DNA of 64,000 nt from NCBI GenBank assembly GCA_016187515.1, contig JACPJN010000006.1:856-64855 (forward strand), read 5' to 3'. Both the position numbers and the translations under genes were made by a program. The stretch comes from Candidatus Uhrbacteria bacterium. GTDB lineage: Bacteria > Patescibacteriota > Patescibacteriia > GWA2-47-26. Shown here in pieces: positions 32,008 through 61,944 of the stretch (position 1 is the stretch's first letter; each line of letters begins with the position of its first letter). The notes below the pieces were generated by a model that was not told the origin of the DNA, made no database searches, and worked only from the letters and a program-made list of their open reading frames with translations.

Positions 32008-33231
32008 TCACCAAAACATCACTCGTCTGTTTATCTGCCAATACGCATTCATGGCTGGATTCGCAATATACTTAAGCACGGGGTTCATTACTTCTTGAAA
32101 TAAAATTTGTCCGGTAAAATCGCGCATCATACTCCTATCGGACATGGTGCGCATGGCTTGAATCGCGCGCCTCTCACGCGCTATTTTTCGCCACGAACTG
32201 GGTTTGAAAAAATAACCCCAGCTGCGTAATTTTGGCTTGGCGTATCCGCCAAGTATCGCGCCGGAGAGCACCCCAAGCTCCATTGCGAAAAACGCCGGCG
32301 CGATTAAAATCAGCGTCGGCACTTTATAAAACTGCAGCATCGTGAGCAACCGATTGCGCTCCATATAATAGACCTGTAAAATGGAACGCTTGAATTCATA
32401 CTTGTGCCACATGATTGATTTTGGAGCGAACACCACGCGATAGCCGGCCAACTTGGCTTTCAGGCAAAGCTCCATATCGTCGTGATACATAAAAAAGTCC
32501 GGATTGCAAAGTCCAATTTTTTCAAATACTGCGCGCCTCACATACATGGACGCGCCAGAAGCGTAAGGAATGTCCTCAATTTCTCCTCCCCTTAAGGTAA
32601 GGGGAGGCTGGGAGGGGTTATGAGTGCTTTCTATATCGCCATATCCCTTGCAATACCCAAACCCAAGAAAATGAATTTGATTGCCAACTGAATTGATCCG
32701 CTGCACGCCATCTTTTCCCACGGGCCAAAGCAACAGTTTTGACTGCACAATGCCGATCGGGCGATTGTCGTAACTCCCCCTACCCCCTCTTACCCTAAGA
32801 GGGGGTTCCGATCGATCTCCCTCCCTTAAGATAAGGGAGGGTTGGGGAGGGTTATGCTCCTCACTATACGCTGCCGCCACGAGTTCGCGTAACCACTGCG
32901 GCTGCACAATCACATCCATGTTGGAAAGCACAATATCCTCACAGCCGTCTTTAAACGCCTGCGCAATCCCCACATTATTCCCCCCGCCCCAACCGGAATT
33001 TTCTTTATTGGGCAATATCACCGCCTCCGGATACATTTCGCGCAAATATGCTTCCGTCTCCGGACTTGTCGCGTTGTCCACGATGTACACCACATATTTA
33101 TCACGCGGATAATTAATCTTCCGCATGCTATCCCGACAATCCTCAAGAAACCTTTTGGCGTAGGTTTTGTAGTTGATTAAAACTATGCCTACCTTCGGTG
33201 TCATAGTTTGATTATTAATCAGATTTAACAC
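32008..33231 (-). CDS. Family 2 glycosyltransferase with two in-frame hairpin-repeat insertions
   Basis: GT-A motifs (VVYIVDNATSPET..., DxD-type region, NSGWGGGNNVGIA). Inserts at 32584-32622 and 32773-32857 encode HNPSQPPLTLRGGEIED and HNPPQPSLILREGDRSEPPLRVRGGRGSY. Confidence 0.8.
   Translation of the reverse strand: MLNLINNQTMTPKVGIVLINYKTYAKRFLEDCRDSMRKINYPRDKYVVYIVDNATSPETEAYLREMYPEAVILPNKENSGWGGGNNVGIAQAFKDGCEDIVLSNMDVIVQPQWLRELVAAAYSEEHNPPQPSLILREGDRSEPPLRVRGGRGSYDNRPIGIVQSKLLLWPVGKDGVQRINSVGNQIHFLGFGYCKGYGDIESTHNPSQPPLTLRGGEIEDIPYASGASMYVRRAVFEKIGLCNPDFFMYHDDMELCLKAKLAGYRVVFAPKSIMWHKYEFKRSILQVYYMERNRLLTMLQFYKVPTLILIAPAFFAMELGVLSGAILGGYAKPKLRSWGYFFKPSSWRKIARERRAIQAMRTMSDRSMMRDFTGQILFQEVMNPVLKYIANPAMNAYWQINRRVMFW
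32584..32622. repeat. Solo hairpin unit in GT2 (encodes PSQPPLTLRGG)
   Basis: CTCCTCCCCTTAAGGTAAGGGGAGGCTGGGAGGGGTTATGAG. Confidence 0.85.
32773..32857. repeat. Inverted pair of hairpin units in GT2
   Basis: ACTCCCCCTACCCCCTCTTACCCTAAGAGGGGG...CTCCCTCCCTTAAGATAAGGGAGGGTTGGGGAGGGTTATG. Confidence 0.85.
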
Positions 33232-33236
33232 AGATA

Positions 33237-33635
33237 TTAAACAAATGGTTTCTTGCTTCTATCCGGGTAGACTATGCGACGAATGCGTACACCATTAGGT
33301 GTAAAGAAAATAAGCAGCGCAATCTGCATATTAGTTACCCGTAGATATTCTAAAACCTGACGCAAGTGAACATTTTTTAACTCCGGGACCACTTTAATCT
33401 CTACCACGACCTTACCATCAACTATAAAATCCAATCGATCCTCTCCTATCTTTTTTCCAGCATAGCACAAATCCACTGTAAATTCACGAGCATATGCTAT
33501 GCCCAATTGATCAAATTCGGCCGCTATTGCTCTCTGCACATAAGTTTCCCGAATATGCGGCCCTAAACTGTTCCCCACTTTATATGCCGCCCCAATAATT
33601 TTATGAGTTAGCTCTTTATGCGGGTACTCTGCCAT
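33237..33635 (-). CDS. GxxExxY-family (PD-(D/E)xK-like) protein embedded in the glycosyltransferase cluster
   Basis: KELTHKIIGAAYKVGNSLGPHIRETYVQRAIAAEF...LDFIVDGKVVVEIKVV matches the family pattern. Start set at ATG 33635. Confidence 0.5.
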   Translation of the reverse strand: MAEYPHKELTHKIIGAAYKVGNSLGPHIRETYVQRAIAAEFDQLGIAYAREFTVDLCYAGKKIGEDRLDFIVDGKVVVEIKVVPELKNVHLRQVLEYLRVTNMQIALLIFFTPNGVRIRRIVYPDRSKKPFV

Positions 33636-33679
33636 ATAATATCTGATTATATCTGATCCGAATCTGTTTAGTGATCGCG

Positions 33680-34501
33680 TCAGTAACTCTGACGCCACCA
33701 TTTCCACGCATACTTCATCAAACTTTTAATATGGATACGCGTCAGGGGGTTTAGTAACACTGACTTGAGACCAGGCACTTTGGCCGAAGCGCGCTCGTGA
33801 CCGTGTTGAATTATCACATCGCCCTTGTAATACACTGGCCAGCCGCGGGACCAAAAGGTGCGGCAAAGATCCGTGTCTTCAAGATACATAAAATACCGCT
33901 CATCAAAAAATCCTACGTCCTTGAACACTGAGCCGCGGCAAAACAGTGCCGCACCCGTTGCCCAATCAATCGGCTGTGTTTTTGTGTGGTCAAAATCCTT
34001 CATGTGCAGATGTTCAACGCGCCTGCGCGCCCAGTCATATTTTTTATGCAAGCCCAGGCGATAAATTGGTTGGTCCAAAAAACGCGGAAATCGCATGCAG
34101 GAGGGCTGCATCTCACCGTTTGGGAGCATAAGCCGCGGCGCTACGATTCCCACTTTGGGATGCGCTTCCATAAATTGATAAAGCCGCAGAGTTGTGCGCG
34201 GCTGGTTTTCTAAAAATACCAGATCGGGATTGGCAATAAAATAATACTTGGCCTCAAATTGTTTAAGCCCGAGATTATTTCCACGACCAAATCCGACATT
34301 TCTGCCGGCATCGATGAAAACCACGCGATCACCAAACTCCTGTGTGAGCGCCTCCTTTAACCCATCCCTTGACGCATTATCCACAACAACCGGCTGCACC
34401 TTCAAATTTGTGCCTTGAACATCTCGAAATAGCAACCGAAGCATCGCCAAAATTTTATCGCGCATTTTGTAGTTGACTGTCACGGTAATAATATCAAACA
34501 T
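33680..34501 (-). CDS. Family 2 glycosyltransferase
   Basis: GT-A N-terminus (ITVTVNYKMRDK...VVVDNASRDG...) and DxD/ED region. Start set at ATG 34501 (MFDIITV...), which excludes the upstream iteron repeat translated in the longer ORF. Confidence 0.75.
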   Translation of the reverse strand: MFDIITVTVNYKMRDKILAMLRLLFRDVQGTNLKVQPVVVDNASRDGLKEALTQEFGDRVVFIDAGRNVGFGRGNNLGLKQFEAKYYFIANPDLVFLENQPRTTLRLYQFMEAHPKVGIVAPRLMLPNGEMQPSCMRFPRFLDQPIYRLGLHKKYDWARRRVEHLHMKDFDHTKTQPIDWATGAALFCRGSVFKDVGFFDERYFMYLEDTDLCRTFWSRGWPVYYKGDVIIQHGHERASAKVPGLKSVLLNPLTRIHIKSLMKYAWKWWRQSY

Positions 34502-34506
34502 ATTTG

Positions 34507-34575
34507 ATTGAAGTAAATCAAGCGAGACAGGTAAATCAGGCGCTTGACTTGCTTGATTCACTTGATTTACTTGCT
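34507..34575. repeat. Family B iteron array (TAAATCAAG / CTTGATTTA copies) between two GT2 genes
   Basis: AAGTAAATCAAGCGAGACAGGTAAATCAGGCGCTTGACTTGCTTGATTCACTTGATTTACTTGCTTTAC. Confidence 0.75.
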
Positions 34576-35754
34576 TTACTTTTCTAAAAACCACCGCCTC
34601 ATCTCTTCCGGCTTTACTTTATAATTCGCCATAATCGCGCACCGCTTGGCCATGGTGCGCGGCCACAGTTTTTTCACTTCACGCAAGCCTTTCAGTGTTC
34701 CCCAATCGGTGAAAATCAGATATACAAACTTCTTCAGCTCATACCCGAGAATCCACGGCCAGTCTTTTCCAAAGTTAGCACGATGCTCATTCTTTAGCAA
34801 GACCGTGAGATGATTCCGATAGGAATAGTAATTTACATACGCCGCCCGCCCTTTTCGATTTTTCATGGCTGCCGAGTCAGACATTTCTTGCGGTCCTGTC
34901 GCAGTGCGATCATGCCACGCGCGCGCCTCTGCCGTCACATACGCTTTCCATCCCGCGCTCCGCAGGCGGAATGCTAAATCAACATCCTCTTTATAACTTC
35001 CAAATTCATCATCAAACATACTTCCTTCAAATGCCACATCATCAACTGCCTTGCGGCGATAAATGGGGAGTGCACCAGAGACACCGAAAACTTCAACGCC
35101 TCCCCCTCTTAAGGTAAGAGGGGGTTGGGGGGCGTTATGAGTTGTCATTTGTTCTCCTGTTCTCCAATCCACCACTCTCCGATTTCGCAACACCTTCAAT
35201 CCCATTGTATCAATGATATTGGTGAGCGATTCGCTAATTGGAAATTGGAAATTATCCTCCCGATGCGGATCCGCCCTGGGCGGAGAAATTAGAAATTTAC
35301 TAAAATCCCATTTTAGCAGTGTCCCCTGTCCTGCCCCGGCCTCCGGATTGCCGTCCATCATCGCGACTACTTTTTCCAAATAATCCGGGGCCAAATACAT
35401 GTCTTGATTGAGGAGTTGGATGTACTCGGATGGCGTAGGGCGTAGGGCGTAGGGCGTAGAGTTCGAATCAATTTCATTACCATTTGCCCTATGCCCTATG
35501 CTCTTAGCCACCAAACGCACGGCTTGATTATGCCCCCCTGCAAATCCGAGATTTTTTTCATTGCGCACTAGTCGCGCAGGCACTGGCAGATTCTTTATTT
35601 CACGCTCAATTAAATCCGCTGTCCCATCCGTGGAATTATTATCAATCGCCAGTAACTCCCAATCTCTATACGTCTGCCTTCGGAGCGACTCAAAAAGATA
35701 GGGAATATACTTTGCGCCGTTCCAAGCCACTAAATGCACCGAGAGTTTTGCCAT
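34576..35754 (-). CDS. Family 2 glycosyltransferase carrying a heptanucleotide tandem repeat and a hairpin-repeat insertion in frame
   Basis: LSVHLVAWNGAKYIPYLFESLRRQTYRDWELLAIDNNSTDGT GT2 motifs. In-frame inserts (GCGTAGG)x4 at 35433-35460 and the hairpin unit at 35099-35141. Confidence 0.75.
   Translation of the reverse strand: MAKLSVHLVAWNGAKYIPYLFESLRRQTYRDWELLAIDNNSTDGTADLIEREIKNLPVPARLVRNEKNLGFAGGHNQAVRLVAKSIGHRANGNEIDSNSTPYALRPTPSEYIQLLNQDMYLAPDYLEKVVAMMDGNPEAGAGQGTLLKWDFSKFLISPPRADPHREDNFQFPISESLTNIIDTMGLKVLRNRRVVDWRTGEQMTTHNAPQPPLTLRGGGVEVFGVSGALPIYRRKAVDDVAFEGSMFDDEFGSYKEDVDLAFRLRSAGWKAYVTAEARAWHDRTATGPQEMSDSAAMKNRKGRAAYVNYYSYRNHLTVLLKNEHRANFGKDWPWILGYELKKFVYLIFTDWGTLKGLREVKKLWPRTMAKRCAIMANYKVKPEEMRRWFLEK
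35099..35141. repeat. Solo hairpin unit in GT2 34576..35754
   Basis: GCCTCCCCCTCTTAAGGTAAGAGGGGGTTGGGGGGCGTTATGAG. Confidence 0.85.
35433..35460. repeat. Heptanucleotide tandem repeat (GCGTAGG)x4 inside GT2 CDS, paired with inverted (GCCCTAT)x2 at 35487-35503
   Basis: Direct reading of GGCGTAGGGCGTAGGGCGTAGGGCGTAGA. The unit length is not a multiple of three. Confidence 0.8.
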
Positions 35755-35756
35755 AT

Positions 35757-36803
35757 CTATGTTACTCTCTTTCCCTGCATATTCAATTTATCCCCCACCC
35801 ACACAGCCGCAAGCGCCAACGGACGCACCCAATCAAGTAATTCCCCCTCCCACCATGGACGATGTTTTCTAAAATATTGCACCATTGAGCGCGTCATCAT
35901 TTTTTGCTTCGGATACAAGCGCACTTGCTTAAAACTCTGTCCCACATAATCCACGGCCTTGACTGTCGGCGTGTAAGCCACTTCATAACCGGCCTCAATT
36001 GCGCGTTTGCAAAAATCCACTTCTTCAAACCAAATAAAAAATCCTTCATCCAGCATGCCGATTTTATCCAAAAGTTCCCGCCGAATCATAAAGAAAGACC
36101 CGCGAATGGAATCCACCCGCGCTTCTTTACTATAATCAAAATCTTGCATCATATAATGGTCAAGTACTTTTGGAAAAAAATGTGGTACTTTGAGCATAAT
36201 AGCAAGCTGATCTTTGATTGTGGGGAACCTGCGCACGTGGGGGACAGTGACGTAGTCATCTATTTCGTAACTCCCCCTACCCCCTCTTACCCTAAGCGGG
36301 GGTACCGCTCGATCTCCCTCCCTTAAGGTAAGGGAGGGAGGGGGTGGGTTATGAATCGGCGACACCAACCAACACCCTGCTACTCCGACCTTCGCATTTA
36401 CAGGATCATCCATAAACCGTACCATCCCCTCCAATGTCCCCTGAAATACCCGCATATCCGGATTCAGAAGAAGCACATAGCGACCTTGCGAAAGCCGAAT
36501 CGCTTGATTGTTGGCTTTTGCAAAACCAGCATTAAAATCATTGGCAATCACATGTACGGACGGAAATTCCTGCTCCACCATTTGTACTGTCCCATCTTTT
36601 GAAGCATTATCAACCACAAAAACTTCGTAGGTTAAAGAGCCCCCTCCCCTAGCCCCTCCCACCGAGGGAGGGGAATTTCCAATGATTTCCTCCCCCTTGA
36701 TGGGGGAGGATGAAGGAGGGGGTGTGGTTTCCTCCACCGACCTCAAACACTCCCTTAACTTTTCCTTGACGTTCCAACTGACGATAACAATTGATAAATC
36801 CAT
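35757..36803 (-). CDS. Family 2 glycosyltransferase with three in-frame repeat insertions
   Basis: MDLSIVIVSWNVKEKL...FVVDNASKDGT GT2 motifs. Inserts at 36269-36354 and 36639-36730. Confidence 0.8.
   Translation of the reverse strand: MDLSIVIVSWNVKEKLRECLRSVEETTPPPSSSPIKGEEIIGNSPPSVGGARGGGSLTYEVFVVDNASKDGTVQMVEQEFPSVHVIANDFNAGFAKANNQAIRLSQGRYVLLLNPDMRVFQGTLEGMVRFMDDPVNAKVGVAGCWLVSPIHNPPPPSLTLREGDRAVPPLRVRGGRGSYEIDDYVTVPHVRRFPTIKDQLAIMLKVPHFFPKVLDHYMMQDFDYSKEARVDSIRGSFFMIRRELLDKIGMLDEGFFIWFEEVDFCKRAIEAGYEVAYTPTVKAVDYVGQSFKQVRLYPKQKMMTRSMVQYFRKHRPWWEGELLDWVRPLALAAVWVGDKLNMQGKRVT
36269..36354. repeat. Inverted pair of hairpin units in GT2 35757..36803
   Basis: Nearly identical to the pair at 32773-32857 (ACTCCCCCTACCCCCTCTTACCCTAAGCGGGGG...CTCCCTCCCTTAAGGTAAGGGAGGGAGGGGGTGGGTTATGA). 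Confidence 0.85.
36639..36730. repeat. Variant hairpin element (TCCTCCCCCTTGATGGGGGAGGA type) in GT2; second copy at 43037-43133 in GT4
   Basis: GCCCCCTCCCCTAGCCCCTCCCACCGAGGGAGGGGAATTTCC...TCCTCCCCCTTGATGGGGGAGGATGAAGGAGGGGGTG. Both copies encode ...SSPIKGEE.... Confidence 0.85.
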
Positions 36804-37021: not shown

Positions 37022-37633
37022 CTAGAGTACCGCGAGCAGCAGCACTAGTGCGAGATGCTCGTTGACCTCGCCTTCGCGCAGAGCCTCATCCAGCTCGTCT
37101 CGCTTGAGCCACATCTCGTTGTCGGCGAGCTCAAACGTGTGCGGGCTAACCCGCACTACCGCGTAGCGGTTCTCCTTGCCGATGAACCGTCCGCCATCCA
37201 TGGTGAGCCTCACCCACTCGATCTCCTTCCCGTCGAGAAGCTCTGCCCGCGGCGGACGCTTGCCTCCATGGGCTTGCTGCAGGTTCGACCACGAGGCCTG
37301 CAAAGGCGGCCCGAGAAGAACATGCCCGGGTTTGGTAGTATTGCCGGGCTCCTGGCGCGCCGCGACAAGGAAATACCCCAGATCAAACAAGGATTGAAAC
37401 AGAACTACCGCGCCCTCTCCGACTTCTTGGAGAAGCGGCTGATTCCATTCCCTTACCTCACGCTGCGCCACCACATGCACCCCTACGAGGTTGAAGAATC
37501 CGCCATCCGGACGACCGAATCGCGCTCCCCCATCCTGCAGACCCCAGGGCTGCGCTTCGGAGAGGGGAACCACCGTTGCGGACATCTGCGATTTTGCTCG
37601 CTGCTCGGCAAGCCAATCCTGCCAATTGGACAT
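37022..37633 (-). CDS. NDP-hexose 2,3-dehydratase-like protein (single ~200-aa domain)
   Basis: Motifs FGRPDGGFF...VREWNQPLL...AARQEPGNTTKPGHVLLGPPLQASWSNLQQAHGG parallel the conserved QAKAEPGN...PTVQAT.SNY core of EvaA/EryBVI-type dehydratases. GC-rich relative to neighbours. Confidence 0.55.
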   Translation of the reverse strand: MSNWQDWLAEQRAKSQMSATVVPLSEAQPWGLQDGGARFGRPDGGFFNLVGVHVVAQREVREWNQPLLQEVGEGAVVLFQSLFDLGYFLVAARQEPGNTTKPGHVLLGPPLQASWSNLQQAHGGKRPPRAELLDGKEIEWVRLTMDGGRFIGKENRYAVVRVSPHTFELADNEMWLKRDELDEALREGEVNEHLALVLLLAVL

Positions 37634-37677: not shown

Positions 37678-38607
37678 CTACGCCATGTTTTTTGTCAAGA
37701 ATTCTTTTAGCGCCTCTTGCCACGGTCGCAGAGGCGGCAGTTTGGTATTGAAGAGTACGACACGCGCTGGTCGGCGGGCTTTGCGGGGAAAGTGGTCTGG
37801 ACCGACTGGCACGACTTCCACATTGGAAAGGCCGGCGTATTCCAGCGCGGCTTTGGCATACTCATACCAAGTGCAGGAACCGGAATTGGTGAGGTGATAG
37901 ATGCCTGAGGGGTGTGGTTGTCGTAACCCCTCCTTCGCCCCGCCATCTGGCGGTGGCTCACCTCCCCTTACCCTAAGGGGAGAAAGACCGAGGAGAGTAA
38001 GTGTGGCTTGCGCTAAATCCTTCACATACGTCGGGCTTCCGGCTTCGGCATCAACCGCTTCCACTTTCCCCTTTTCACGCGCGATTTTAATCATCATTTC
38101 CGGAAAACTTTTTTTGCTCGTCTCCCCAGTACCGGGGGGGCCGAAAAGTTTGGAGGTACGGATGAGGTACCAGGGGGTAAGTGAGTAAGTTAGTAAGTGA
38201 GTAAGTAATTTTTGCTCTCCCAACGCCTTAGATTGGCCGTATACGGAAATGGGGCCAGGAAGATCTTCCTCATGGTACCCGTCAGTACGCGTACCACTAA
38301 ACACGTAATCCGTGGAAAAATGCACAAACGTCGCGCCGCACTCTGCTGCCGCGCGCGCTAAGTATCCTACGGCTTCGCCGTTGATCGCCATCGCCACCTG
38401 CGGTTCGTCTTCCGCTTTGTCCACGTTATTGTACGCCGCACAATTCAAAATTACGCTCGGCTGGAGCGCGTTTATTTTATTCATAACTGCTTGTTCGCTG
38501 GTAATATCAATATCTTCGCGCGTCCAACCCACCACGTCTTGGCCGCGCAGTTGCCTCATGAATTCTTGGCCCAGCATTCCATGACCTCCTATAATGAGGA
38601 TCTTCAT
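37678..38607 (-). CDS. rmlD: dTDP-4-dehydrorhamnose reductase
   Basis: MKILIIGGHGMLGQE Rossmann N-terminus and RmlD-type catalytic YxxxK region. Start at ATG 38607. In-frame hairpin insert at 37908-37984. Confidence 0.75.
   Translation of the reverse strand: MKILIIGGHGMLGQEFMRQLRGQDVVGWTREDIDITSEQAVMNKINALQPSVILNCAAYNNVDKAEDEPQVAMAINGEAVGYLARAAAECGATFVHFSTDYVFSGTRTDGYHEEDLPGPISVYGQSKALGEQKLLTHLLTYSLTPWYLIRTSKLFGPPGTGETSKKSFPEMMIKIAREKGKVEAVDAEAGSPTYVKDLAQATLTLLGLSPLRVRGGEPPPDGGAKEGLRQPHPSGIYHLTNSGSCTWYEYAKAALEYAGLSNVEVVPVGPDHFPRKARRPARVVLFNTKLPPLRPWQEALKEFLTKNMA
37908..37984. repeat. Hairpin unit pair in rmlD
   Basis: GGGGTGTGGTTGTCGTAACCCCTCCTTCGCCCCGCCATCTGGCGGTGGCTCACCTCCCCTTACCCTAAGGGGAG. 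Confidence 0.8.
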
Positions 38608-38694
38608 AACGTAAACTTGATGGCCACTGATGGTGACGGATGGCCACGGGATCACGGATCTGTGATCTGTGGCTATCCTGTCTTCTATCCGTGG

Positions 38695-39714
38695 CTATCC
38701 GGTCTTAATATGCGGGTTCATGTCTTGCTTTCGAGTGCGTAGTGCCTCCACCCACTCGGTATTTTCCTGATACCACTCTACGGTTTTGCGCAAACCAGCT
38801 TCAAATTTTTCTCGCGGATACTCTGGAATCCATCCCATGCGCATGATTTTGGCAGAATCAATGGCGTAGCGGCGATCATGACCGGGACGATCTTGTACAT
38901 GGCTCATCAGCGACTCGGACTTGCCCAGCATCGTAAGCAGCATTCTCACCACCTCCAAATTTGATCGCTCATTATCCGCGCCAATGTTGTACACCTCACC
39001 CGGCACGCCTTTTTGCAAAAGCAACTCAATCGCGCTCGCATGATCTATGGCATGAATCCAATCGCGCACATATAAACCGTCGCCGTAAATCGGAATCGCC
39101 TCATCTGCCATGGCTTTGAAAATTGTTTGCGGAATAAATTTTTCCGGAAACTGATACGGGCCGTAGTTATTTGAACAATGCGTCACAATCACCGGTGTTT
39201 TGAAGGTTTGAAAGTAAGAACGGCACACGAGATCGCCGCCGGCCTTGCATGCCGCGTAAGGCATATTGGGCGCAAACGGGGTTTCTTCATGAAACAAACG
39301 CTTTTCATCAAGACGCAATGCTCCAAAAACTTCATCGGTTGACACTTGAATAAAAAGCGGCACCTTATATTTTTTAGTGGCTTCGCATAAAACCTGCGGC
39401 CCCATTACATTGGCAGAAATAAAATCCTTGAGTGAACCATGGATCGAACGATCCACATGGGTCTCGGCCGCGAAAGAAATGAGCGCCTCCGGTTTGCTCT
39501 GCTCCACCGCGCGATCCACGGCGTCTTGATCCGCGATATCGCCGCGCACAAGCTTATACCGCGCATCACTGCCAAAATCTTTGAGGTTCAAAGAATTGCC
39601 GGCATAAGTCAGCTTATCAAAATTCACCACGTCCCAATCGTGGTGTTTATTCAAAATATAGCGGATGAAATTGGAACCGATAAATCCGGCTCCGCCGCAG
39701 ACCAGGAGTTTCAT
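38695..39714 (-). CDS. rmlB: dTDP-glucose 4,6-dehydratase
   Basis: MKLLVCGGAGFIGSNF...SDARYKLVRGDI...catalytic YAACKAGGD, with full-length extended SDR architecture. Confidence 0.9.
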   Translation of the reverse strand: MKLLVCGGAGFIGSNFIRYILNKHHDWDVVNFDKLTYAGNSLNLKDFGSDARYKLVRGDIADQDAVDRAVEQSKPEALISFAAETHVDRSIHGSLKDFISANVMGPQVLCEATKKYKVPLFIQVSTDEVFGALRLDEKRLFHEETPFAPNMPYAACKAGGDLVCRSYFQTFKTPVIVTHCSNNYGPYQFPEKFIPQTIFKAMADEAIPIYGDGLYVRDWIHAIDHASAIELLLQKGVPGEVYNIGADNERSNLEVVRMLLTMLGKSESLMSHVQDRPGHDRRYAIDSAKIMRMGWIPEYPREKFEAGLRKTVEWYQENTEWVEALRTRKQDMNPHIKTG

Positions 39715-40230: not shown

Positions 40231-40231
40231 T

Positions 40232-48559: not shown

Positions 48560-48600
48560 CGTTGTGTTCGATTTTTGCGAATCGAGAACGTGAGTTGCCG

Positions 48601-54214: not shown

Positions 54215-54484
54215 ATGATCCGTTTATCCGTTTCCGAAGCCGCTAAATTCTTCGGCCTGGAACAAAAAACCGTGCGCCGCGCCTTAAAGAGCGGCGAGTT
54301 GCGCTATGTGGTAGTTCGCGGCCGCTATCGCATCGCTTTTGAGAGCTTACTGGAATGGTCGCAAAAGCGCCCCCAAGTGCGCAATAAGTTATCCACACAA
54401 GGAGTAGGCCAATTTGTTGGCCAATGGAAAATCCGGAATAAATTATACAGCCCCAACCCAGAAAAGCTTTCTACCAAAGAGTAA
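54215..54484 (+). CDS. Excisionase-family helix-turn-helix DNA-binding protein
   Basis: LSVSEAAKFFGLEQKTVRRALKSGELRYVVVRGRYRI matches excisionase/MerR-superfamily HTH_17-type domains. Confidence 0.6.
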   Translation: MIRLSVSEAAKFFGLEQKTVRRALKSGELRYVVVRGRYRIAFESLLEWSQKRPQVRNKLSTQGVGQFVGQWKIRNKLYSPNPEKLSTKE

Positions 54485-54543: not shown

Positions 54544-55836
54544 TTACTCAATCCGCTGCACTGCCGATAAAGAAGCCAGTTTAATATCTTGATGCACGAT
54601 TTCGGTCGTCTCCACGCTGGTAAAATCCAGGGTGCGGGAGCGGTACTCCGCGTAACCCGGTTTTTCCGCCGTAATATAAAACGCGCCGCGGCCAACCAGA
54701 AACGCGTAACGTCCATGACGATCCGTAATTTGCGTATCTAAAAGTTTGTTGAATTGCCCGTCGAAAATACGGATCACGGCCAAAGCGAGCGGCCGGCCGC
54801 TTAACGCGTCAACCACGGATCCCCAGGGCCGCGGGCGTTTACCCTCGGCGATTCTTCTAAATAAACCCAGGAAACCAAGCTGTACCGCCAAGAGAACCGC
54901 AGTAGTCAGCGTTGGACGAATCGCTAATGCGGCGGCGGCAAAGACCGGCCCGCTCCAAGCCAGACCTTTTTGAACAGCGCGTAAACGCCGGCGCGCGAAA
55001 ATATTCCGAGGAGTCGTCTCGTCTTTTTGAAGCGGATCAATCGGGATGGGCCGGGCGATGGTTGTTGATTTTAGGGTCGCCTCCAAGAGCTCACCGTGAT
55101 AAAGCTCGGTAAAATCCAGGTCGGATTTTTTGTCTTGCAAAAAACCGGAGGGGAAGCTAAATCCCGGCTTCGACACTTCCATCCGATAATTGCCCGGATC
55201 AACCAGAAATAAATACCGCCCCTGCTTGTCACTCACGCGCGTCTGGGTCAGCCGCCCGGTCTGGCCGTTAAATAGCCGCACGACCGCCAAATCCACCGGC
55301 AGCTTAGTCAGGGAGGAATAGATAATCCCCCACTCTTTTCTTCGCCGCCTGGTAAACAAAAGCAGCGGTTGGGTAAAAAACCCTTGCAGATAGATAAGCA
55401 GGGTTCCGAAACCAACCGCGCCAGTGGCCACCGCGGAGGCGGCATTGGCCGCGCCAGATACCGCGATTATCGGGGAAACCAATTCTACGGCGGCTTGCTC
55501 CACCTTCGGATTATCCAGGACTCTTACAATTGCCCGGGTCGTCTGCTCCGGCACTGCCTGGGGAATAACCGGAGCAATAAAACCAGAAACCGGTTCGGAC
55601 TCATCCTCATCCAGACGCGAGGAACAATCCGGATCGTCGGGGTAATCAATCAATTGATCCCCGTCGTTATCCAGTCCATCAAAACAGTCCGGAACAGTTA
55701 CCGTAAACCGCACCGGCGCGTTAAACTGGCCAGCCGGACCGGCCTGGTCCGCCTCCTGTCCTTCTGCCGGATAAGACCACCCCGCCAAAAGCAGAAAAAC
55801 AATTACCCCCAAAAATGAGTAAACAATCTTGCGCAT
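54544..55836 (-). CDS. Membrane protein with two carboxypeptidase-regulatory-like (CarbopepD_reg) beta-sandwich domains
   Basis: Signal/TM N-terminus and two repeats (VRLFNGQTGRL...DKQGRYLF...PGNY and IRIFDGQFNKL...DRHGRYAF...) with central TM helices. Confidence 0.5.
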   Translation of the reverse strand: MRKIVYSFLGVIVFLLLAGWSYPAEGQEADQAGPAGQFNAPVRFTVTVPDCFDGLDNDGDQLIDYPDDPDCSSRLDEDESEPVSGFIAPVIPQAVPEQTTRAIVRVLDNPKVEQAAVELVSPIIAVSGAANAASAVATGAVGFGTLLIYLQGFFTQPLLLFTRRRRKEWGIIYSSLTKLPVDLAVVRLFNGQTGRLTQTRVSDKQGRYLFLVDPGNYRMEVSKPGFSFPSGFLQDKKSDLDFTELYHGELLEATLKSTTIARPIPIDPLQKDETTPRNIFARRRLRAVQKGLAWSGPVFAAAALAIRPTLTTAVLLAVQLGFLGLFRRIAEGKRPRPWGSVVDALSGRPLALAVIRIFDGQFNKLLDTQITDRHGRYAFLVGRGAFYITAEKPGYAEYRSRTLDFTSVETTEIVHQDIKLASLSAVQRIE

Positions 55837-56050: not shown

Positions 56051-56157
56051 ACTAAAAACGAGTGAGGCCGAGCACAAACAGCGGGGTGCCCGCTGGGGCA
56101 CCCCGACTGTAGTTTTTGCGCGAGTGGTCTGGGCGCTAGCGGCCCAACCCCTCACCC

Positions 56158-59100
56158 CTACTTATTGATGTACGCCTTGTAGTCCGCGGCGCCTCTCCAG
56201 GCCGAGGCCGGAATGGTCGGGTGCACGGTCTTGCCGCCAAACCGCACGGACTGTTTGATTTCATCCATATTGTATCCGCCGTAAGTATAGGCGTTTACAT
56301 AAGTGTACCACCAACTCTTGGACTGGGCCGTTTTTTGATGGAACAGCCGGTTAAACACTCCGGGCAAAACAATGTTTAGATCCTTGGATAACCCGCGGGC
56401 CAGTCCCTGCTCGGTTGAAAGCGCGCGCACGCGTGCGGCGCCATAAGCATGCGTTCCGGAACGCAGTACTTCCACAGATACGCCTTCAATTGGCGGGGTC
56501 TGGGATACGCTCGGCGCCGGCGCAGCCGCGGTAGCAGCAGCCGGGGTTGCGGCAGTAGTTCCGGTCGTAGCGGCTGGCGTTGCTGTGGTAGCCGGGGTTG
56601 CGGCGGCAGGCGCTGGAGCAGTAACCGTACTGCTCGCGGCGGCCGCAACCGCGATACTCACTTCCTCACTCAAGCGCTGGTTGTTCGAAGTATCGCGCGA
56701 CTTCAAGATATATTTGTAGGTCTTGCCGGCCGCGACTGTGCTATCCACATACTGTCTAACTCCTTTTAGGACCGGGGCGCGCATCTCGCCGGTAACCGCG
56801 GTACCATTACCGTCATTGCGCAAAATCTCAATGCGGGATAGGTCGGTATCGGTTGGATCAGTCCAGGTCAAGGTTACCGAGGTACCGTTGGAGGTCGCGC
56901 GCACATTGGTTGGCGCCCCGGGCGGAGTCAGATCGCTGGAAGAACCGGCCGTGGTGACTACTCCGCCGATAATGCCAAAGGACGAGAAGTGGCTGACCGA
57001 GGCAATCAAGAGATTGTTGGTAGTATCCACAGTGGTCGCCACGGTTTCCCAGGTCTGCGAGGAAGTATTGTAGGAAGCCAGCTGCAACTTTGCCTCGGCC
57101 ACGCCGGCGGAGGACACATCCGCGTCAGTGTAGGGCATGGTAATGGTTACCGGACTGTTGGTGTCGGATACTTTTTTGCCGTTGGCGTCTTGGGGCGTAA
57201 TGTCATAGCCATGGCCGCCGACAAAGTTCTGATCCAGGCCGGGATCAATATCTTTGAGCGTTGGATCGCTCTTCATCTCCACTTTCCCGGTTGAAGAATC
57301 CGTGGTGGAGAAAGCGTTGGTTGGCACATTGATCTCCGGAGCAGTGCCGCTAACCGCCAAATCATTAAACTTCATTAGTCCGCCGGAGGAAAGTCCAAAG
57401 GTGCCGGATCCGCTCTTCTGGGTGTACCCCGAGATTGAATTATCCAGCGCAAGCGTCGGCGCTGATCCGGAAAGCGCGCCGCCAGACACGGTTACCGTGG
57501 AAGCGGTGGATTGTTTGCCATTGTCTCCGACGGCTTTAACGGACCAGACGCCATTGGTCAGATCCAGCGAAGCATTGCCGGTGGTAGAATCAATTTTTCC
57601 GACCACGACCGAATTGCCCTTCGTGGCAATCACCGTGGCTACACCAGTATAAGCCGCGCTTGACTCTTGAACCGGAATAGTAATAATTTCACCAGCGGTC
57701 GCGGAGGTTGGCGTTAACGCCACCGCGCTCGACATCGTCAAGTTGCCGCCGGAAACGCTGGCGGTGGTGGCGGCGGACTCATATCCTTTTTTGGAGACCA
57801 TAACATTATAGACGCCTTCCGGAACGTTCGAACCGGACAAGTTGTTGTTGGTTCCGCTTTGGTTTCCGGTTACCACTTTGAATGACGACTTAGTGGTGGT
57901 ATCGGTAAAGGTTGCCGTAACGCCTTCCAGGTTGCTCGTGCCATCGGTAATCCGTCCGGCCACAGTTCGCAGAGTTGGCACGGTGGCGGTAATTGCCGTG
58001 GTACTGCCGGCCGTAAGCGTAGCGGAGGAGGAGCCCAGCGTAAGCGGGCCGGTCCGGGGACTGCCGCAACGCACCGTATAAGTTCCGGCCGGCGCCTTAA
58101 TTGTGGCCGTACCGCTTTGAATCGGAGCGCCGGAACCTAGACCGGCGGAGTCGCGCGCGTCGCAGAATCCTTCAGTCAAACCGGTCGCGGTTACCGTAAT
58201 CGTGCCCGGGTTGCCGGCAACGGTAAAGTTCTGGGTCTTGGACGTATCGCCGGACGCGAAGGTGACGGTGGCGCGTCCCAGCGGACCCACTCCGGGCGCG
58301 AAGCCATCGCAAGTCATGCTGGTTGAACCGCTCCCAGCCAGTTTTACTTTTATGGAATAGACGCCGTTGGAACCGGTCTGCCCGCCATTGCCGCCGTTTG
58401 AACCATAGCAGTTCACAAACGCGCCGGAAACATTGGATCCGGCTTTGGTGACCGTGCCGGTTACCGTGCCAAAGCCAGTCGAGGTGGCCGCGATGTTCTG
58501 ACCGGTCAGCGAAGTTCCGGCCATGGTGACGGTCTTGGTGCCGACTTCGCCGTAGGACGGCGCAAAGGCGCGAATGCACCACGTGCCGTTGGACACATAC
58601 AGCGTAAAGTTGCCGGAGGAGTCAGTGGGACTGTCCGCAAATCCGCCGGATGGCCGGGAATTGCTAAAGTCGCAAGCATCCGAGCCGGTGGTAATCGTGC
58701 GCTTCTCCGCGCTGACATGCGCGTACTGAATGCCGTTTCCGGATTCATCTTGAATCGCGCCGGAAATCGTGGTGGAGGACTTCACCATCTTTAAGGTAAC
58801 GCCGGTTACATTCACGCCTTTCACATTGGCAATCTGACGCGTGGAAGGCGGAAGTCCTGGCCCGTCCGCGCCAACTTCGTAAGTACCGTCCACGACTGCC
58901 AAGCTAAAGGTTCCGTCGGATTTGGTCTGGGCAAACGCGCCATGGCAGTCCTTAAACTCGCCGGAGGTGGCGTCAAAGCAGCCCACCGGTTCCGCATGCA
59001 CGAACACATTGGCAATGCCGTTGGAGGAGCCGTCCACCACTGTTCCGGTAATGGTGCGATTGGTGGATTGCAAGGCAAAGGTAATGGCTTTGTCCGCGTC

Positions 59101-61944
59101 CATGTTTACGATTTGCGGCTTGGGCGGCATAAAGGTAAAGGTCGGCATTGGCGGCGGACCACCGCTTCCGAACTGTTCAAAGGCCATGTGCGGACCCATC
59201 CCGCAATCATAGTTCTTATCCTGCTGAAGCTTAAGCGTGGTGGTTCCGGAGCCGTCGGCGCCCAAAGTTACGGATTTCATGGACGGCGCGGAAAATTGAA
59301 AGTCAAATCCGCCCGCGGAACAGAACACATCCACCTCGGTACTGGCTGGCCCGCCGGAGATATTAACGGTCAAGGTTTTGGCGTCGGACGCCGTCGCCAT
59401 ATTCTTATACTTGGTATCCACGTCCGTCCGGTTCGCGTTGGATAAGGTAATTGGCTGGAAAGGAGGCGAGCCGCCAACATCCGCCAGTCGGGTGGGATCC
59501 GGCGGGATATTGCAAGAGTACTCGCCCGCGGTTAAACCGGTAATGCTCCAGTCGCCGCTGGCATCCGTGGTGGCTTCTTGAAAACCCATAAAGGCGCTGC
59601 TCGCCGCACCCACCACGAAACCGCCCATTTGATTGCAGAACACCTTAACACTGGCAATTCCGGTGTCGCCTACGCCGCAGGTTCCGCCCGAGGTGGTACC
59701 CTTGCACACGGTTCCGGAAATGGAAAGCGATCCGCCTTGCTGAATGCTAAACGGCGCCGGATTAATGGTTTGACCGATTTTTACTCCGCTATTATCTTTA
59801 ACCACAATGCTTACCCGCAGATTTTCCCCTGGCGTAGTCGGGGTGGTTAGGCGATCCAGTTCAAAATGCACCATGGCGCCGTTTCCAATGGCCGCTCCCA
59901 CGGTCGTGAGCGTTATGGTTTTTGCGCCGGTATCGGTTACGGCCGTGGCGGTAACTGTTCCGCTCTCCGGCCCATTCAAGTCCGTATTCCACTGTGACAG
60001 GGTCGTTGGAACTATCCGCGCGTTGCCGTCCCCGGTGGACAAGGTAAATCCGGACGGGAAAGTCAAAAGTACGGTAGAGCTAACCGGCATGGCGCCCGGC
60101 GCCGGGAATTCACACTCCAGAGAAGTGCCTTTGTTTACCGCGACATTGCGCGGCTGACAGCGCATCGGCTTTTCCCAAAAGGTGGCCGCGGTTTGTCCGC
60201 CCATGCCGCCGAAAAAGTCGTTGCTCGCGGTCGCGCCTCCGCCCAGGAATCCGCCGGTGGTTGCCGCGTTCAAAACCTTGAAGTCCCCCCGATTATTGTT
60301 GCTGGCGGTATCCATGGCATTGCCGGCCAGATCGCGCGCGGTGGTAACGGTAATTCGGCAGGTTTGATCCTGCGGCAAACCCAAGCCGCTAATTTCCAGC
60401 TCTTTAAACTCGGAACGATAGGTAGCCGCTTTGCCGGTCAGCGCGATCGCCACCCCGGTTGGACATTCCAAGGACACATTGGAGGTATTGACATTGCCGC
60501 TCGTGATCAAATCCGCGGACCGCATGGCCTCGTTAAAGTGCACCACCGCTTTATAGTTATCCGCGTCAATATAGGACACTTTGGGACCGCCGGAGACCGG
60601 ATCAGTGGACAAGCCCGTGGTAAAGCAATTCGCGGAAGAAGTTGCCGTAACCGCATTGCCGGAAAGATCTTTTACCCCGCTTGCGCCGCCCACAATTTCA
60701 ATGCAGTACTTCGTACTCGCGGCCAGCGCGTCGCCGGTAATGGGATCCAACCCTACTTCCTTGGCAATATCATCATAGCTAATGGTGAATTTCGTCACAT
60801 CAGTCAGACGCGTGTCCCCGGCTTCGCATCCGGCAGTTCCGGCAGTGGAGTCCTGACACAGACGCACCGTGGACAAAGAAACGGTTGACGGATCCAGCGT
60901 TTCGCCAAAACGCACATCCAGCAGAAGTCCCAACGGCGAAACATTCGTGGCGCCGTCAACCGGAGTGGTCGGAGCCGAAGCGGCCAGCGCGGGCGCGGTG
61001 GAGTCCGCCGCCGCGGTTCGGAAGCGCATGCAATAATCACCCATTAAATTCTGGTTAGCGCTATTTTTAACGGCAAAGGTGTTACCGCTGCCGCGCACGC
61101 ACAAATCATATTCAATCGGCGCCGCTGTCCCGGAAGCCACTTCCAAGTTGGAAGCCGGATTAACCGTTAGCTCGCGCGTTACGGCATTCCAGCTTAACGC
61201 GCAGGTGGTGGAGTTAGTGCATACTTCGGTAGTCGGCACAAAATTTTCAATCTTTTTGATACTGATCGCGCCTTGATTATTCTGAAAGAAATTCAAGTCG
61301 CCGGCAACAGGAGTGACCGCGCCAAAATTCATATTGCCATCCGGACCAGTTGGGAACATCACGATGAGATTGCCACCGGCCGGAAAAGCTATGCCTGGAC
61401 CCGGAGTGGTGCCCATTACCCGCGGCGGAGTAGTATTGGTCCCAGCCATGACGGTTCCGGTGCGGAAAATTCGGGTTACGGCGGAAGCAAGCGCATCATT
61501 GGTGGAACTTTGCACCCCGGTTCCAATCTGAAATCGAAACGTGGTGCTGGCCGCCAGCGCCGCGTGATCACACACGATGCGGGTATTGTTATCCAAAGTT
61601 ACGGCCGTGCAAAGATTGGCCGCGGTATTGGGAGTAGCGCACGCAGTCGCGTCAGTTGCGCCGGTACAGGAATAAAGCGTGACATTGGTGGTATTGACCG
61701 TAGCGGAACTTAGATTTTCCGATCCAGTTATATCAACCAGCGCCAGGTCCGGCACAAACTCCTGACCGTTCTGCGGACCGCCGCCGGAAAGCGTTGGCAC
61801 GCCGGCGCGGCTTACTCCCGCCACGATAAACATACTGACCAACACGAGTGAGGCAATCAAAAAAAGCGTACTAAACGCACGCTTCCCACGACCTTCGGGA
61901 ATTAACGACTTAAACGACGGGACAGAAAGGATTGAATAAGACAT
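56158..61944 (-). CDS. Giant cell-surface protein (1928 aa) with Ig-like/fibronectin-III-like repeats and Thr/Ala-rich linker
   Basis: N-terminal signal-anchor, many beta-rich repeats, an FN3-like segment (PGAPTNVRATSNGTSVTLTWTDPTD) and a TTAT/PA-rich low-complexity linker before a small C-terminal domain. Confidence 0.7.
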   Translation of the reverse strand: MSYSILSVPSFKSLIPEGRGKRAFSTLFLIASLVLVSMFIVAGVSRAGVPTLSGGGPQNGQEFVPDLALVDITGSENLSSATVNTTNVTLYSCTGATDATACATPNTAANLCTAVTLDNNTRIVCDHAALAASTTFRFQIGTGVQSSTNDALASAVTRIFRTGTVMAGTNTTPPRVMGTTPGPGIAFPAGGNLIVMFPTGPDGNMNFGAVTPVAGDLNFFQNNQGAISIKKIENFVPTTEVCTNSTTCALSWNAVTRELTVNPASNLEVASGTAAPIEYDLCVRGSGNTFAVKNSANQNLMGDYCMRFRTAAADSTAPALAASAPTTPVDGATNVSPLGLLLDVRFGETLDPSTVSLSTVRLCQDSTAGTAGCEAGDTRLTDVTKFTISYDDIAKEVGLDPITGDALAASTKYCIEIVGGASGVKDLSGNAVTATSSANCFTTGLSTDPVSGGPKVSYIDADNYKAVVHFNEAMRSADLITSGNVNTSNVSLECPTGVAIALTGKAATYRSEFKELEISGLGLPQDQTCRITVTTARDLAGNAMDTASNNNRGDFKVLNAATTGGFLGGGATASNDFFGGMGGQTAATFWEKPMRCQPRNVAVNKGTSLECEFPAPGAMPVSSTVLLTFPSGFTLSTGDGNARIVPTTLSQWNTDLNGPESGTVTATAVTDTGAKTITLTTVGAAIGNGAMVHFELDRLTTPTTPGENLRVSIVVKDNSGVKIGQTINPAPFSIQQGGSLSISGTVCKGTTSGGTCGVGDTGIASVKVFCNQMGGFVVGAASSAFMGFQEATTDASGDWSITGLTAGEYSCNIPPDPTRLADVGGSPPFQPITLSNANRTDVDTKYKNMATASDAKTLTVNISGGPASTEVDVFCSAGGFDFQFSAPSMKSVTLGADGSGTTTLKLQQDKNYDCGMGPHMAFEQFGSGGPPPMPTFTFMPPKPQIVNMDADKAITFALQSTNRTITGTVVDGSSNGIANVFVHAEPVGCFDATSGEFKDCHGAFAQTKSDGTFSLAVVDGTYEVGADGPGLPPSTRQIANVKGVNVTGVTLKMVKSSTTISGAIQDESGNGIQYAHVSAEKRTITTGSDACDFSNSRPSGGFADSPTDSSGNFTLYVSNGTWCIRAFAPSYGEVGTKTVTMAGTSLTGQNIAATSTGFGTVTGTVTKAGSNVSGAFVNCYGSNGGNGGQTGSNGVYSIKVKLAGSGSTSMTCDGFAPGVGPLGRATVTFASGDTSKTQNFTVAGNPGTITVTATGLTEGFCDARDSAGLGSGAPIQSGTATIKAPAGTYTVRCGSPRTGPLTLGSSSATLTAGSTTAITATVPTLRTVAGRITDGTSNLEGVTATFTDTTTKSSFKVVTGNQSGTNNNLSGSNVPEGVYNVMVSKKGYESAATTASVSGGNLTMSSAVALTPTSATAGEIITIPVQESSAAYTGVATVIATKGNSVVVGKIDSTTGNASLDLTNGVWSVKAVGDNGKQSTASTVTVSGGALSGSAPTLALDNSISGYTQKSGSGTFGLSSGGLMKFNDLAVSGTAPEINVPTNAFSTTDSSTGKVEMKSDPTLKDIDPGLDQNFVGGHGYDITPQDANGKKVSDTNSPVTITMPYTDADVSSAGVAEAKLQLASYNTSSQTWETVATTVDTTNNLLIASVSHFSSFGIIGGVVTTAGSSSDLTPPGAPTNVRATSNGTSVTLTWTDPTDTDLSRIEILRNDGNGTAVTGEMRAPVLKGVRQYVDSTVAAGKTYKYILKSRDTSNNQRLSEEVSIAVAAAASSTVTAPAPAAATPATTATPAATTGTTAATPAAATAAAPAPSVSQTPPIEGVSVEVLRSGTHAYGAARVRALSTEQGLARGLSKDLNIVLPGVFNRLFHQKTAQSKSWWYTYVNAYTYGGYNMDEIKQSVRFGGKTVHPTIPASAWRGAADYKAYINK

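Follow-up and report, generated by a model that had tools for sequence, protein, structure and literature searches.

Known Glycan Systems and the Uhrbacteria Locus

The streptococcal rhamnose polysaccharide pathway combines Rml enzymes, GT2 and GT4 rhamnosyltransferases, a GacO/WecA-type primer, and an ABC exporter. The actinobacterial operon for phosphatidylinositol (PI) and phosphatidylinositol mannosides (PIM) joins the HIT-like Rv2613c, pgsA1, patA, pimA, and the Nudix protein Rv2609c, and GT-C glycosyltransferases of the lipomannan/lipoarabinomannan pathway elongate the phospholipid-anchored glycan. Proteins are the acceptors of the GT39 O-mannosyltransferases, among which bacterial Pmt is also counted. 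In the Patescibacteria (Candidate Phyla Radiation), which account for a large share of bacterial diversity and are mostly attached to other cells, envelope construction is almost unknown, and no paper on protein glycosylation in this group, or on the pairing of PgsA with a GT-C enzyme, was found in the literature. The locus described here lies in a 64-kb stretch of DNA from Candidatus Uhrbacteria (Patescibacteria), called the window below, and consists of a glycan gene cluster at 32.0–46.4 kb, centered on a polytopic glycosyltransferase of GT-C fold (the GT-C enzyme) and its PgsA-type neighbor, followed by the genes of two giant secreted proteins, Surf1233 and Surf1928. An earlier note on this DNA had read it as an envelope glycosylation locus, which is supported here, and had proposed that a PMT-like enzyme O-glycosylates the giant proteins, which is judged less likely.

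As in the PI/PIM operon, one cluster of the locus brings together HIT, CDP-alcohol phosphatidyltransferase, and GT4 genes, joined in relatives by NUDIX; however, the phosphatidyltransferase of the window is of the PgsA type and not of the phosphatidylinositol phosphate (PIP) synthase type, there is no acyltransferase, and PimE ranks only 25th among the structural matches of the GT-C enzyme. ArnT (GT83) is like the GT-C enzyme in its GT-C_A fold, its length of about 550 residues, and its soluble C-terminal domain of small size; the first outer loop of both contains an acidic motif, and both match Pfam PMT_2, the GT-C enzyme marginally. It differs in sequence (12% identity), in acting on lipid A, which a monoderm Patescibacterium lacks (the group is regarded as being without lipopolysaccharide), and in surroundings, the window having no arn context and a PgsA-type partner. 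The GT39 enzymes (yeast Pmt1, Pmt2, and Pmt4) share an Asp–Glu pair in loop 1 and an implied lipid-phosphate sugar donor, and the NCBI label of the GT-C enzyme is "GT39 family protein"; the window, however, has no Ppm1/DPM1-type synthase, and the enzyme lacks PF02366 and PF16192.

The likeness to the streptococcal pathway lies in dTDP-rhamnose genes, several GT2 and GT4 enzymes, and an outer-face GT-C, whereas no GacO/WecA-type primer or ABC exporter was seen here, the window lacks rmlA and rmlC, and coupling to PgsA is foreign to that pathway. Related loci also carry a short GT2 and a DUF2304 gene resembling GacI and GacJ, which are named with the GT-C GacL for the streptococcal rhamnose wall polysaccharide (10.1101/180810). 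The Pgf cluster of Streptococcus mutans encodes together a GT-A enzyme (PgfS), an epimerase (PgfE), the GT-Cs PgfM1 and PgfM2, and the adhesin substrates Cnm, CnaB, and CbpA (10.1101/2024.05.05.592596; PMC5856776). The Uhrbacteria locus likewise holds short-chain dehydrogenase/reductase (SDR), GT-A, and GT-C genes beside Ser/Thr-rich surface proteins, and relatives have two GT-Cs and a short GT2. The Pgf GT-Cs, however, are YfhO-type, Pgf has no PgsA, no rml genes, and no set of six extra glycosyltransferases, the window has no short GT2, and Pgf acts on disordered Ser/Thr stretches, of which Surf1233 has none. Finally, systems in which SLH or CWB2 domains pair with secondary cell wall polymers also have a terminal module common to many secreted proteins, encoded beside polysaccharide genes (10.1101/2025.04.02.646754), but the module of Surf1233 shows no sequence relationship to SLH, CWB2, or SH3b, and its binding to a glycan is hypothetical.

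The locus offers a module that is conserved and testable, in which a new GT-C subfamily translationally coupled to a PgsA-type enzyme stands beside a deoxyhexose/xylose supply, a widespread S8/FG-GAP protease, and an S-layer-like protein with a portable module. If its glycan anchors or covalently decorates the surface proteins, it would open the first molecular access to how Patescibacteria assemble their surface and make contact with hosts; if it does neither, the locus would be an ordinary envelope-polysaccharide cluster.

A Predicted Lipid- or Wall-Linked Glycoconjugate

The region from 32.0 to 46.4 kb is tentatively read as the part of a surface island, vertically conserved in Uhrbacteria and their Patescibacteria relatives, that makes a lipid- or wall-linked envelope glycoconjugate, and not primarily a protein glycan, with a rough probability of 45%. 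The product would best be described as a deoxyhexose-containing, possibly xylose-containing glycolipid, lipoglycan, or wall polymer. This reading is preferred because the cluster holds six Leloir glycosyltransferases, couples PgsA to an ArnT-like GT-C enzyme, and shows no protein-specific machinery; six cytoplasmic Leloir enzymes together with NDP-sugar genes point to an oligo- or polysaccharide, which single-sugar transfer of the PMT type does not explain.

Gene identities, the fold and motifs of the GT-C enzyme, the PgsA-type affinity, and the synteny counts are shown by the results below; from them we infer the lipid acceptor, the donor, the sugars, and any contact with the surface proteins as follows. 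RmlB, RmlD, and a half-size 2,3-dehydratase homologue would supply a dTDP-6-deoxyhexose, either rhamnose-type or 2,6-dideoxy, and a UXS-type SDR would supply UDP-xylose. Two GT4 and four soluble GT2 enzymes would build the glycan on a lipid acceptor at the cytoplasmic face, while the PgsA-type enzyme, translationally coupled to the GT-C enzyme, would make a phosphatidylglycerol-type lipid serving as anchor or substrate of the pathway. The ArnT-like GT-C enzyme would then add a sugar from a polyprenyl-phosphate donor at the outer face. The extracytoplasmic function (ECF) sigma factor, its anti-sigma factor, Surf1233, and the S8/FG-GAP protease would form the protein part of the same surface, and a glycan/surface-protein link that is non-covalent, or that runs through shared envelope assembly, is more likely than covalent O-glycosylation.

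The GT-C Enzyme and Its PgsA-Type Partner

Gene families were assigned from Pfam and NCBIfam profile matches, and coordinates are those of open reading frames (ORFs) in the window, on the minus strand unless stated otherwise. The GT-C enzyme (40232–41899; 555 aa, or 553 aa with the NCBI start, two codons downstream) has a marginal PMT_2 match (PF13231; 28.1 bits, cutoff 26) that covers only residues 121–191, and it has no NCBIfam match, the ArnT model included. A word-indexed search of 5.8 billion proteins yielded only 24 relatives, with Candidatus Uhrbacteria as the organism named for the best match, and a scan of GTDB species genomes yielded 114 confirmed ones. In an alignment of 24 family members, P52-D53 is invariant and E54 nearly so in the SPDE motif that follows the first transmembrane segment; the other invariant residues are R86, R234/E237, Y372-G-S, R393-Y394, and D479-K480, the last pair lying within a small C-terminal α/β domain of about 100 aa. 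The positive-inside rule and analogy with ArnT and the oligosaccharyltransferases would place the SPDE loop, loop 1, outside the membrane.

The AlphaFold model of the enzyme (pLDDT 89.9) has ArnT (5ezm) as its top Foldseek match in the Protein Data Bank (PDB), with an E-value of 4e-6, a TM-score of 0.48–0.49, and 12% identity, and STT3, AglB, PglB, ALG9, and ALG12 match about equally well (TM-scores of 0.43–0.56). The Pmt structures follow at ranks 21–29 (E 1.7e-3 to 0.27), with Pmt4 at rank 21 (1.7e-3) and Pmt1 at rank 24 (0.11), and PimE has an E-value of 0.18. A profile of the family found no solved relative among PDB sequences at E ≤ 10. The earlier description of the enzyme as "PMT-like" is therefore not borne out in the sense of GT39, given that both GT39 Pfam domains are missing and that Pmt stands behind ArnT, STT3/AglB/PglB, and ALG9/ALG12. 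On the choice between GT39 and GT83, ArnT does rank first, but at a TM-score of 0.48 and 12% identity, with oligosaccharyltransferases fitting equally, and the window contains no ArnC, full-length ArnA, ArnB, or ArnD. An oligosaccharyltransferase (GT66) assignment was rejected, as the enzyme has no WWDxG motif, and a YfhO-type assignment (PgfM1, PgtC2, GtlB) was rejected, as no YfhO Pfam match was obtained at E ≤ 0.01. Because the GT39, YfhO, and WWDxG tests fail, no sequence relative is found in the PDB, and ArnT- and STT3-type folds are equally close, the protein is a GT-C_A-fold enzyme of its own unclassified Patescibacteria subfamily, neither GT39 nor YfhO nor oligosaccharyltransferase and not clearly GT83, its likeness to ArnT being confined to size and overall layout.

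The most constant neighbor of the GT-C enzyme is the CDP-alcohol phosphatidyltransferase (41868–42485; PF01066) and not a surface protein. In the window, the 3′ end of the phosphatidyltransferase gene overlaps the start of the GT-C gene by 26–32 nt, and 65 of 84 related loci have a homologue that immediately precedes the GT-C gene in the same orientation, with a median center-to-center offset of −1112 nt and a tight interquartile range. Its catalytic motif, D-x2-DG-x2-AR-x8-G-x3-D-x3-D, is intact. A profile of 49 such proteins matches Staphylococcus aureus PgsA (7drj) over its full length (positions 20–182) with an E-value of 1.4e-18, whereas PIP synthases match in the motif region only (E of about 5e-5 to 3e-4). 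The protein scores below the cutoffs of the curated PgsA equivalog TIGR00560 (61 bits, cutoff 109) and of the PIP synthase model NF045883 (32 bits, cutoff 170), and it is a divergent PgsA member or a paralogue of altered specificity. A PIM-like operon formed by the HIT, phosphatidyltransferase, GT4, and NUDIX genes was considered, and its PI part was dropped on the basis of this PgsA-type profile.

Sugar-Nucleotide Genes and Leloir Glycosyltransferases

Both RmlB (dTDP-glucose 4,6-dehydratase; 38695–39714; TIGR01181, 431 bits, cutoff 365) and an RmlD-type dTDP-4-dehydrorhamnose reductase (37678–38655; TIGR01214, 245 bits, cutoff 224) score above their equivalog cutoffs. The absence of rmlA and rmlC, already remarked on in the earlier note, was borne out by a search of the 64-kb window, in which the four-enzyme RmlABCD set is thus incomplete. 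Next to them is a single-domain homologue of NDP-hexose 2,3-dehydratases (37022–37633; 203 aa; PF03559, E 2e-32), which aligns with both halves of EvaA (4j7g; E 5.6e-27) and whose slot is occupied by FdtA or unknown ORFs in relatives. The extended SDR at 45353–46372 matches the human UDP-glucuronate decarboxylase UXS1 at 222 bits (E 1.6e-64), with the next class at 95 bits, and by sequence it is a probable UDP-glucuronate decarboxylase/UDP-xylose synthase. The 143-nt gap between this gene and the first GT4 gene contains an AT-rich inverted repeat with a 17–18-bp stem (45309–45352), which could be a regulatory site.

The two GT4 enzymes of GT-B fold (42498–43886, 462 aa, and 43905–45209, 434 aa; PF00534/PF13692/PF13439) have only NCBIfam matches far under cutoff. 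Among the four GT2 enzymes, the 407-aa protein (32008–33231; PF13641/PF00535) has a TM-like segment at residues 304–322 and a weak match to the TIGR01556 rhamnosyltransferase model, below cutoff, and the other three (33680–34594, 304 aa; 34576–35754, 392 aa; 35757–36803, 348 aa; all PF00535) are soluble, without transmembrane segments. A polyprenyl-phosphate sugar synthase among the four was rejected, none of them being GtrB-, DPMS-, or GacI-like by PDB sequence search and transmembrane profile, and a tblastn search of the window with the GacI-like GT2 and the DUF2304 protein of relatives found nothing. The window also contains no flippase, priming phosphoglycosyltransferase, polyprenyl-phosphate sugar synthase, or O-oligosaccharyltransferase. 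The cluster is completed by a Hint-type HIT protein (39711–40127; PF01230, E 2e-30). The ORF coordinates listed in the earlier note agree with those found here, and the families expected there were confirmed by Pfam and NCBIfam, apart from the points raised in this text.

Conservation of the Cluster in Related Loci

Every protein of the window was compared by tblastn with 84 related loci (designated by L numbers), covering up to 10 kb on either side of the GT-C gene. The 80 loci kept from the GTDB scan are labelled as Uhrbacteria, Falkowbacteria, Kuenenbacteria, Parcubacteria, or unclassified Patescibacteria, or stem from bulk metagenome-assembled genomes with apparently mislabelled titles. 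Many of the records in L006–L085 are titled "uncultured Gammaproteobacteria bacterium", or plain "bacterium"; the Gammaproteobacteria labels look wrong, because those loci have a Patescibacteria gene order. The GT-C proteins of these loci are only 27–31% identical to that of the window. Besides the phosphatidyltransferase, homologues were found for RmlB in 64 loci (downstream of the GT-C gene), the UXS-type SDR in 63, the 462-aa GT4 in 57 and the 434-aa GT4 in 51 (both upstream of the phosphatidyltransferase), HIT in 56 (downstream of the GT-C gene, same strand), the 407-, 304-, and 392-aa GT2 enzymes in 41–46 (46 for the 407-aa protein), RmlD in 34, the S8 protease in 25 (at the outermost end of the flank), and the 348-aa GT2 in 16. 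The order GT2d-GT2c-GT2b-GT2a is kept in L002, L006, L007, and L026, and L007 shows the gene order of the window throughout, from S8 to GT2a. Because a single bacterial group supplied every locus compared, synteny weighs less here than it would across phyla.

Most relatives have additional conserved genes, for example a 360-aa sugar-phosphate nucleotidyltransferase and the short GT2 with DUF2304. A second GT-C paralogue is often present as well, the near relatives with one being L006, L007, L086, and L087. In most relatives (about 65 loci), a protein of about 710 aa with 16–19 hydrophobic segments is encoded divergently from the phosphatidyltransferase/GT-C pair, as in L003 (7270–9381) and L090 (18248–20380). 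The window has neither this polytopic protein nor an anchored protein of about 490 aa, a 120-aa membrane protein, the nucleotidyltransferase, or FdtA, and Pfam gives nothing for the proteins that are conserved in relatives and lacking in the window, the 710-, 490-, and 120-aa ones included. Because these extra conserved genes are lacking, the window is a reduced version of the cluster.

The GxxExxY/PD-(D/E)XK_3 gene (33237–33707; TIGR04256, 98 bits), which is flanked by two GT2 genes, one of which it overlaps, is by this comparison a lineage-specific insertion outside the conserved cluster, because none of the 84 loci has a homologue and GT2b and GT2a are adjacent there.

Surface Proteins, Protease, and Regulators

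Upstream of the SDR gene of the cluster lies the gene for a secreted S8 subtilase fused to FG-GAP repeats (46456–48501; PF00082 with PF13517/PF01839). Over 6,000 homologues of this protein were found, and most of the ones with a source name are from Patescibacteria; its gene heads the cluster in relatives, and the SDR gene directly follows it in most S8-centered relatives. Among NCBIfam models, the mycosin of type VII secretion fits the S8 domain best, at 144 bits, which is under the cutoff of 279.

Surf1233 (48601–52302) is a secreted Ala/Thr/Gly/Val/Ser-rich protein of 1233 aa without a Pfam match (14.4% Ala, 13.9% Thr, 10.1% Gly; 23.2% Ser + Thr), and Surf1928 (56158–61944) is a secreted Thr/Gly/Ala/Ser-rich protein of 1928 aa with a CarboxypepD_reg match (PF13620), 23.3% Ser + Thr, and 30 Cys. 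Each has an N-terminal signal or anchor. Thr is abundant throughout folded regions; a disordered Ser/Thr linker is missing from Surf1233, and only Surf1928 has a mucin-like Ala/Thr/Pro linker near its C-terminus, at residues 1759–1821. The former label "FN3/Ig-repeat" for Surf1928 finds no Pfam support here; an FN3-like stretch can be made out by eye in its translation, and a faint fn3 match was obtained only in an orthologue. Surf1233 is a candidate S-layer or major surface protein, judging from indirect signs in its sequence, namely its composition, its signal peptide, a conserved size of 1170–1260 aa, a strong terminator of its own, and a bipartite architecture.

Terminator-like hairpins lie 3′ of Surf1233 (48539–48560; a 9-bp stem with seven GC pairs and a T-rich tail) and, by hairpin scoring, 3′ of Surf1928 (56082–56105). 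Both are GC-rich palindromes that score as terminators on either strand, and the T-rich tail is better on the minus strand. Because strong terminators follow both genes, the giant genes are probably transcribed apart from the glycan genes, each as a separate unit that is likely to be highly expressed. Beyond Surf1233, a DUF5667 single-pass membrane protein (52655–53434; transmembrane residues 82–100) and the overlapping gene of an ECF sigma factor (53412–53999), both identified by Pfam, form a probable anti-sigma/sigma pair. They are followed by a small HTH_17 DNA-binding protein, excisionase/MerR-like (54215–54484, plus strand; PF12728, E 6e-11).

Within 10 kb of the GT-C gene, the 84 loci contain no ORF of at least 1100 aa and none above 18% Ser + Thr, a null that has to be read with the longer cluster of the relatives in mind, in which the S8 gene stands at the edge of the flank; loci centered on the S8 gene were therefore compared. 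In L086 and L087, a giant CarboxypepD_reg protein, HTH_17 (in the same position and on the strand opposite to its neighbors), ECF, DUF5667, a Surf1233 orthologue (70% and 56% identity, respectively), S8, SDR, the GT4s, the phosphatidyltransferase, and the GT-C enzyme are all present, and the 962-aa C-terminal part of the 2057-aa Surf1928 orthologue in L087 is 63% identical over 715 aa. In L098 and L099, ECF, DUF5667, and a Surf1233 homologue (27% and 30% identity over about 1200 residues; 23–25% Ser + Thr) precede S8 and the cluster. In L090, a complete 886-kb chromosome, the position of Surf1233 is taken by three non-homologous Big-domain proteins with 21–24% Ser + Thr. Five of the ten informative cluster-bearing loci (L086, L087, L090, L098, L099) thus have an adjoining surface protein, and the other five (L088, L089, L096, L101, L108) have no adjoining surface protein with the module described below. 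The link to surface proteins on which the earlier note had built accordingly stands in part, recurring in five relatives down to 27–30% identity and missing from half of those that are informative.

A Portable Terminal Module

The N-terminal module of Surf1233 (about 130 aa; residues 36–195, 51718–52197) has no Pfam match even at an E-value of 10. A word-prefiltered search with the module gave two matches, and an exhaustive HMMER search was needed to find it in 2,162 representative protein clusters at E ≤ 1e-3. In most cases it comes directly behind the signal peptide, the proteins being 141–1656 aa long with a large class of 1170–1260 aa among them; in others it is C-terminal. Its HMM also recognizes the C-terminus of Big-domain proteins, of a BNR-repeat protein, and of an S8 protease, each beside the same cluster, and in seven loci the module replaces the FG-GAP repeats of the S8 protease; among the module-bearing loci are L090, L098, L102, L106, L019, L027, L055, L065, L026, L042, and L012. 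In loci with the S8 gene only, the module was found in none of 14, although this set probably includes non-Patescibacteria and is not a fair control.

The AlphaFold model of the module (pLDDT 88.4) is a tandem of two β-β-β-α-β-α units. Its only resemblance in the PDB is to the repeats of EccB1 from type VII secretion (E 3e-3, TM-score 0.3), and small actinophage proteins are a further weak fold lead. A weak similarity of the EccB1 repeats to PlyCB, a phage protein that binds cell walls, has been reported (PMC4769845), and polyrhamnose is what PlyCB binds (10.1101/2021.03.19.436156). Such a chain of analogies is a lead and not evidence. The S8 domain (mycosin) and the neighboring module (EccB1) share a resemblance to type VII secretion, which may be coincidence.

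Portability as a terminal module of otherwise unrelated secreted proteins is the hallmark of surface-anchoring domains, with which genes for polymer synthesis are known to co-distribute (10.1101/2025.04.02.646754). It is conceivable, though at present unlikely, that the module is the surface anchor of Patescibacteria, unrecognized until now and functionally a counterpart of SLH or CWB2, and that its ligand, a lipoglycan or wall polymer of rhamnose type anchored to a phospholipid, is the product of the adjoining cluster. If so, the island would encode an S-layer protein, its anchor polymer, a processing protease, and a regulator together.

Weighing the Alternatives

Several of these results count in favor of a lipid- or wall-linked glycoconjugate: ArnT, a lipid-acceptor enzyme, is both the size match and the top structural match of the GT-C enzyme; the giant genes are isolated by terminators; Surf1233 has no Ser/Thr linker; half of the informative relatives have no module-bearing surface protein beside the cluster; and no large or Ser/Thr-rich ORF was found within 10 kb of the GT-C gene. 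Others weigh against it. The pathway is incomplete as seen, because a priming enzyme, a flippase, a polymerase, and a polyprenyl-phosphate sugar synthase are all lacking in the window. The acceptor of the GT-C enzyme is not readable from its sequence, and the protein-acceptor enzymes STT3, AglB, and PglB fit it as well as ArnT does. The PgsA-like gene could be a housekeeping pgsA placed beside the GT-C gene in a compact genome. Lastly, surface proteins recur beside the cluster across deep divergence, including the non-homologous Thr-rich ones in L090, and this recurrent adjacency would also be expected of a dedicated protein-glycosylation island such as Pgf.

The strongest rival, judged rather doubtful, is covalent O-glycosylation, in which a PMT- or Pgf-like GT-C enzyme would modify Ser/Thr residues of the adjoining giant proteins at the outer face from a lipid-linked sugar built with the NDP-sugars of the locus. 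The invariant acidic motif in loop 1, predicted to lie at the outer face by topology, would suit such a reaction. Proteins with 21–25% Ser + Thr stand directly upstream of S8 and the cluster in the five relatives named above, and Surf1928 has its Ala/Thr/Pro linker. The GacI/PgfS-like short GT2 with DUF2304 in more distant relatives and the second GT-C in near ones point the same way, and GT2, second GT-C, and SDR together recall the Pgf cluster of S. mutans (10.1101/2024.05.05.592596). The enzyme itself, however, is neither GT39 nor YfhO, and the window has no GacI-like GT2, DUF2304, or second GT-C. Its coupling to PgsA exceeds any coupling to a surface protein, which half of the informative relatives do without, the six Leloir glycosyltransferases are not explained by the transfer of single sugars, and Surf1233 is free of disordered Ser/Thr linkers.

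Somewhat less probable again is that no functional link exists, and that a polysaccharide cluster, a housekeeping pgsA, and fast-evolving surface genes are neighbors by inherited order in compact genomes. The confinement of all loci to one Patescibacteria group (Uhr-, Falkow-, and Kuenenbacteria), the synteny also of nearby housekeeping genes (S41 protease, MurA, NUDIX, PEGA), and the five relatives without an adjoining surface protein are what such inheritance would produce. On the other hand, the overlap of the phosphatidyltransferase and GT-C genes is kept at 27–31% GT-C identity, and different proteins (S-layer-like, Big-domain, BNR, S8) carrying one module at the same spot are hard to explain by descent alone.

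Least probable, and by some distance, is a head-group modification in which the GT-C enzyme glycosylates the phosphatidylglycerol-type lipid of its PgsA partner, or another membrane lipid, and so alters surface charge or properties, with the GT2, GT4, and rml genes serving a separate polysaccharide: the similar size of ArnT (537 versus 555 aa), its first rank, and the translational coupling to PgsA would fit, but ArnT fits no better than the oligosaccharyltransferases do (TM-score of about 0.5, 12% identity), no ArnC-like synthase and no homologue of ArnA, ArnB, or ArnD is present apart from the UXS-type SDR, and the co-oriented, tightly packed cluster suggests one pathway.

Other Genes of the Window

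A 430-aa membrane protein with two CarboxypepD_reg domains and TM-like segments (54544–55836; PF13620, E 3e-18) was left out of the earlier gene list; it has an Asp/Cys-rich N-terminal motif, CFDGLDNDGDQLIDYPDDPDCS.

Elsewhere in the window, at 8890–22994 on the minus strand, five paralogous proteins of 343–578 aa end in a PEP-utilizers swivel domain, and their N-terminal parts are unrelated to one another and have no Pfam match. These paralogues adjoin an ATP-grasp protein (PPDK_N), a Fic protein (11893–12513), and a Trp-repressor-like HTH protein (18563–18925).

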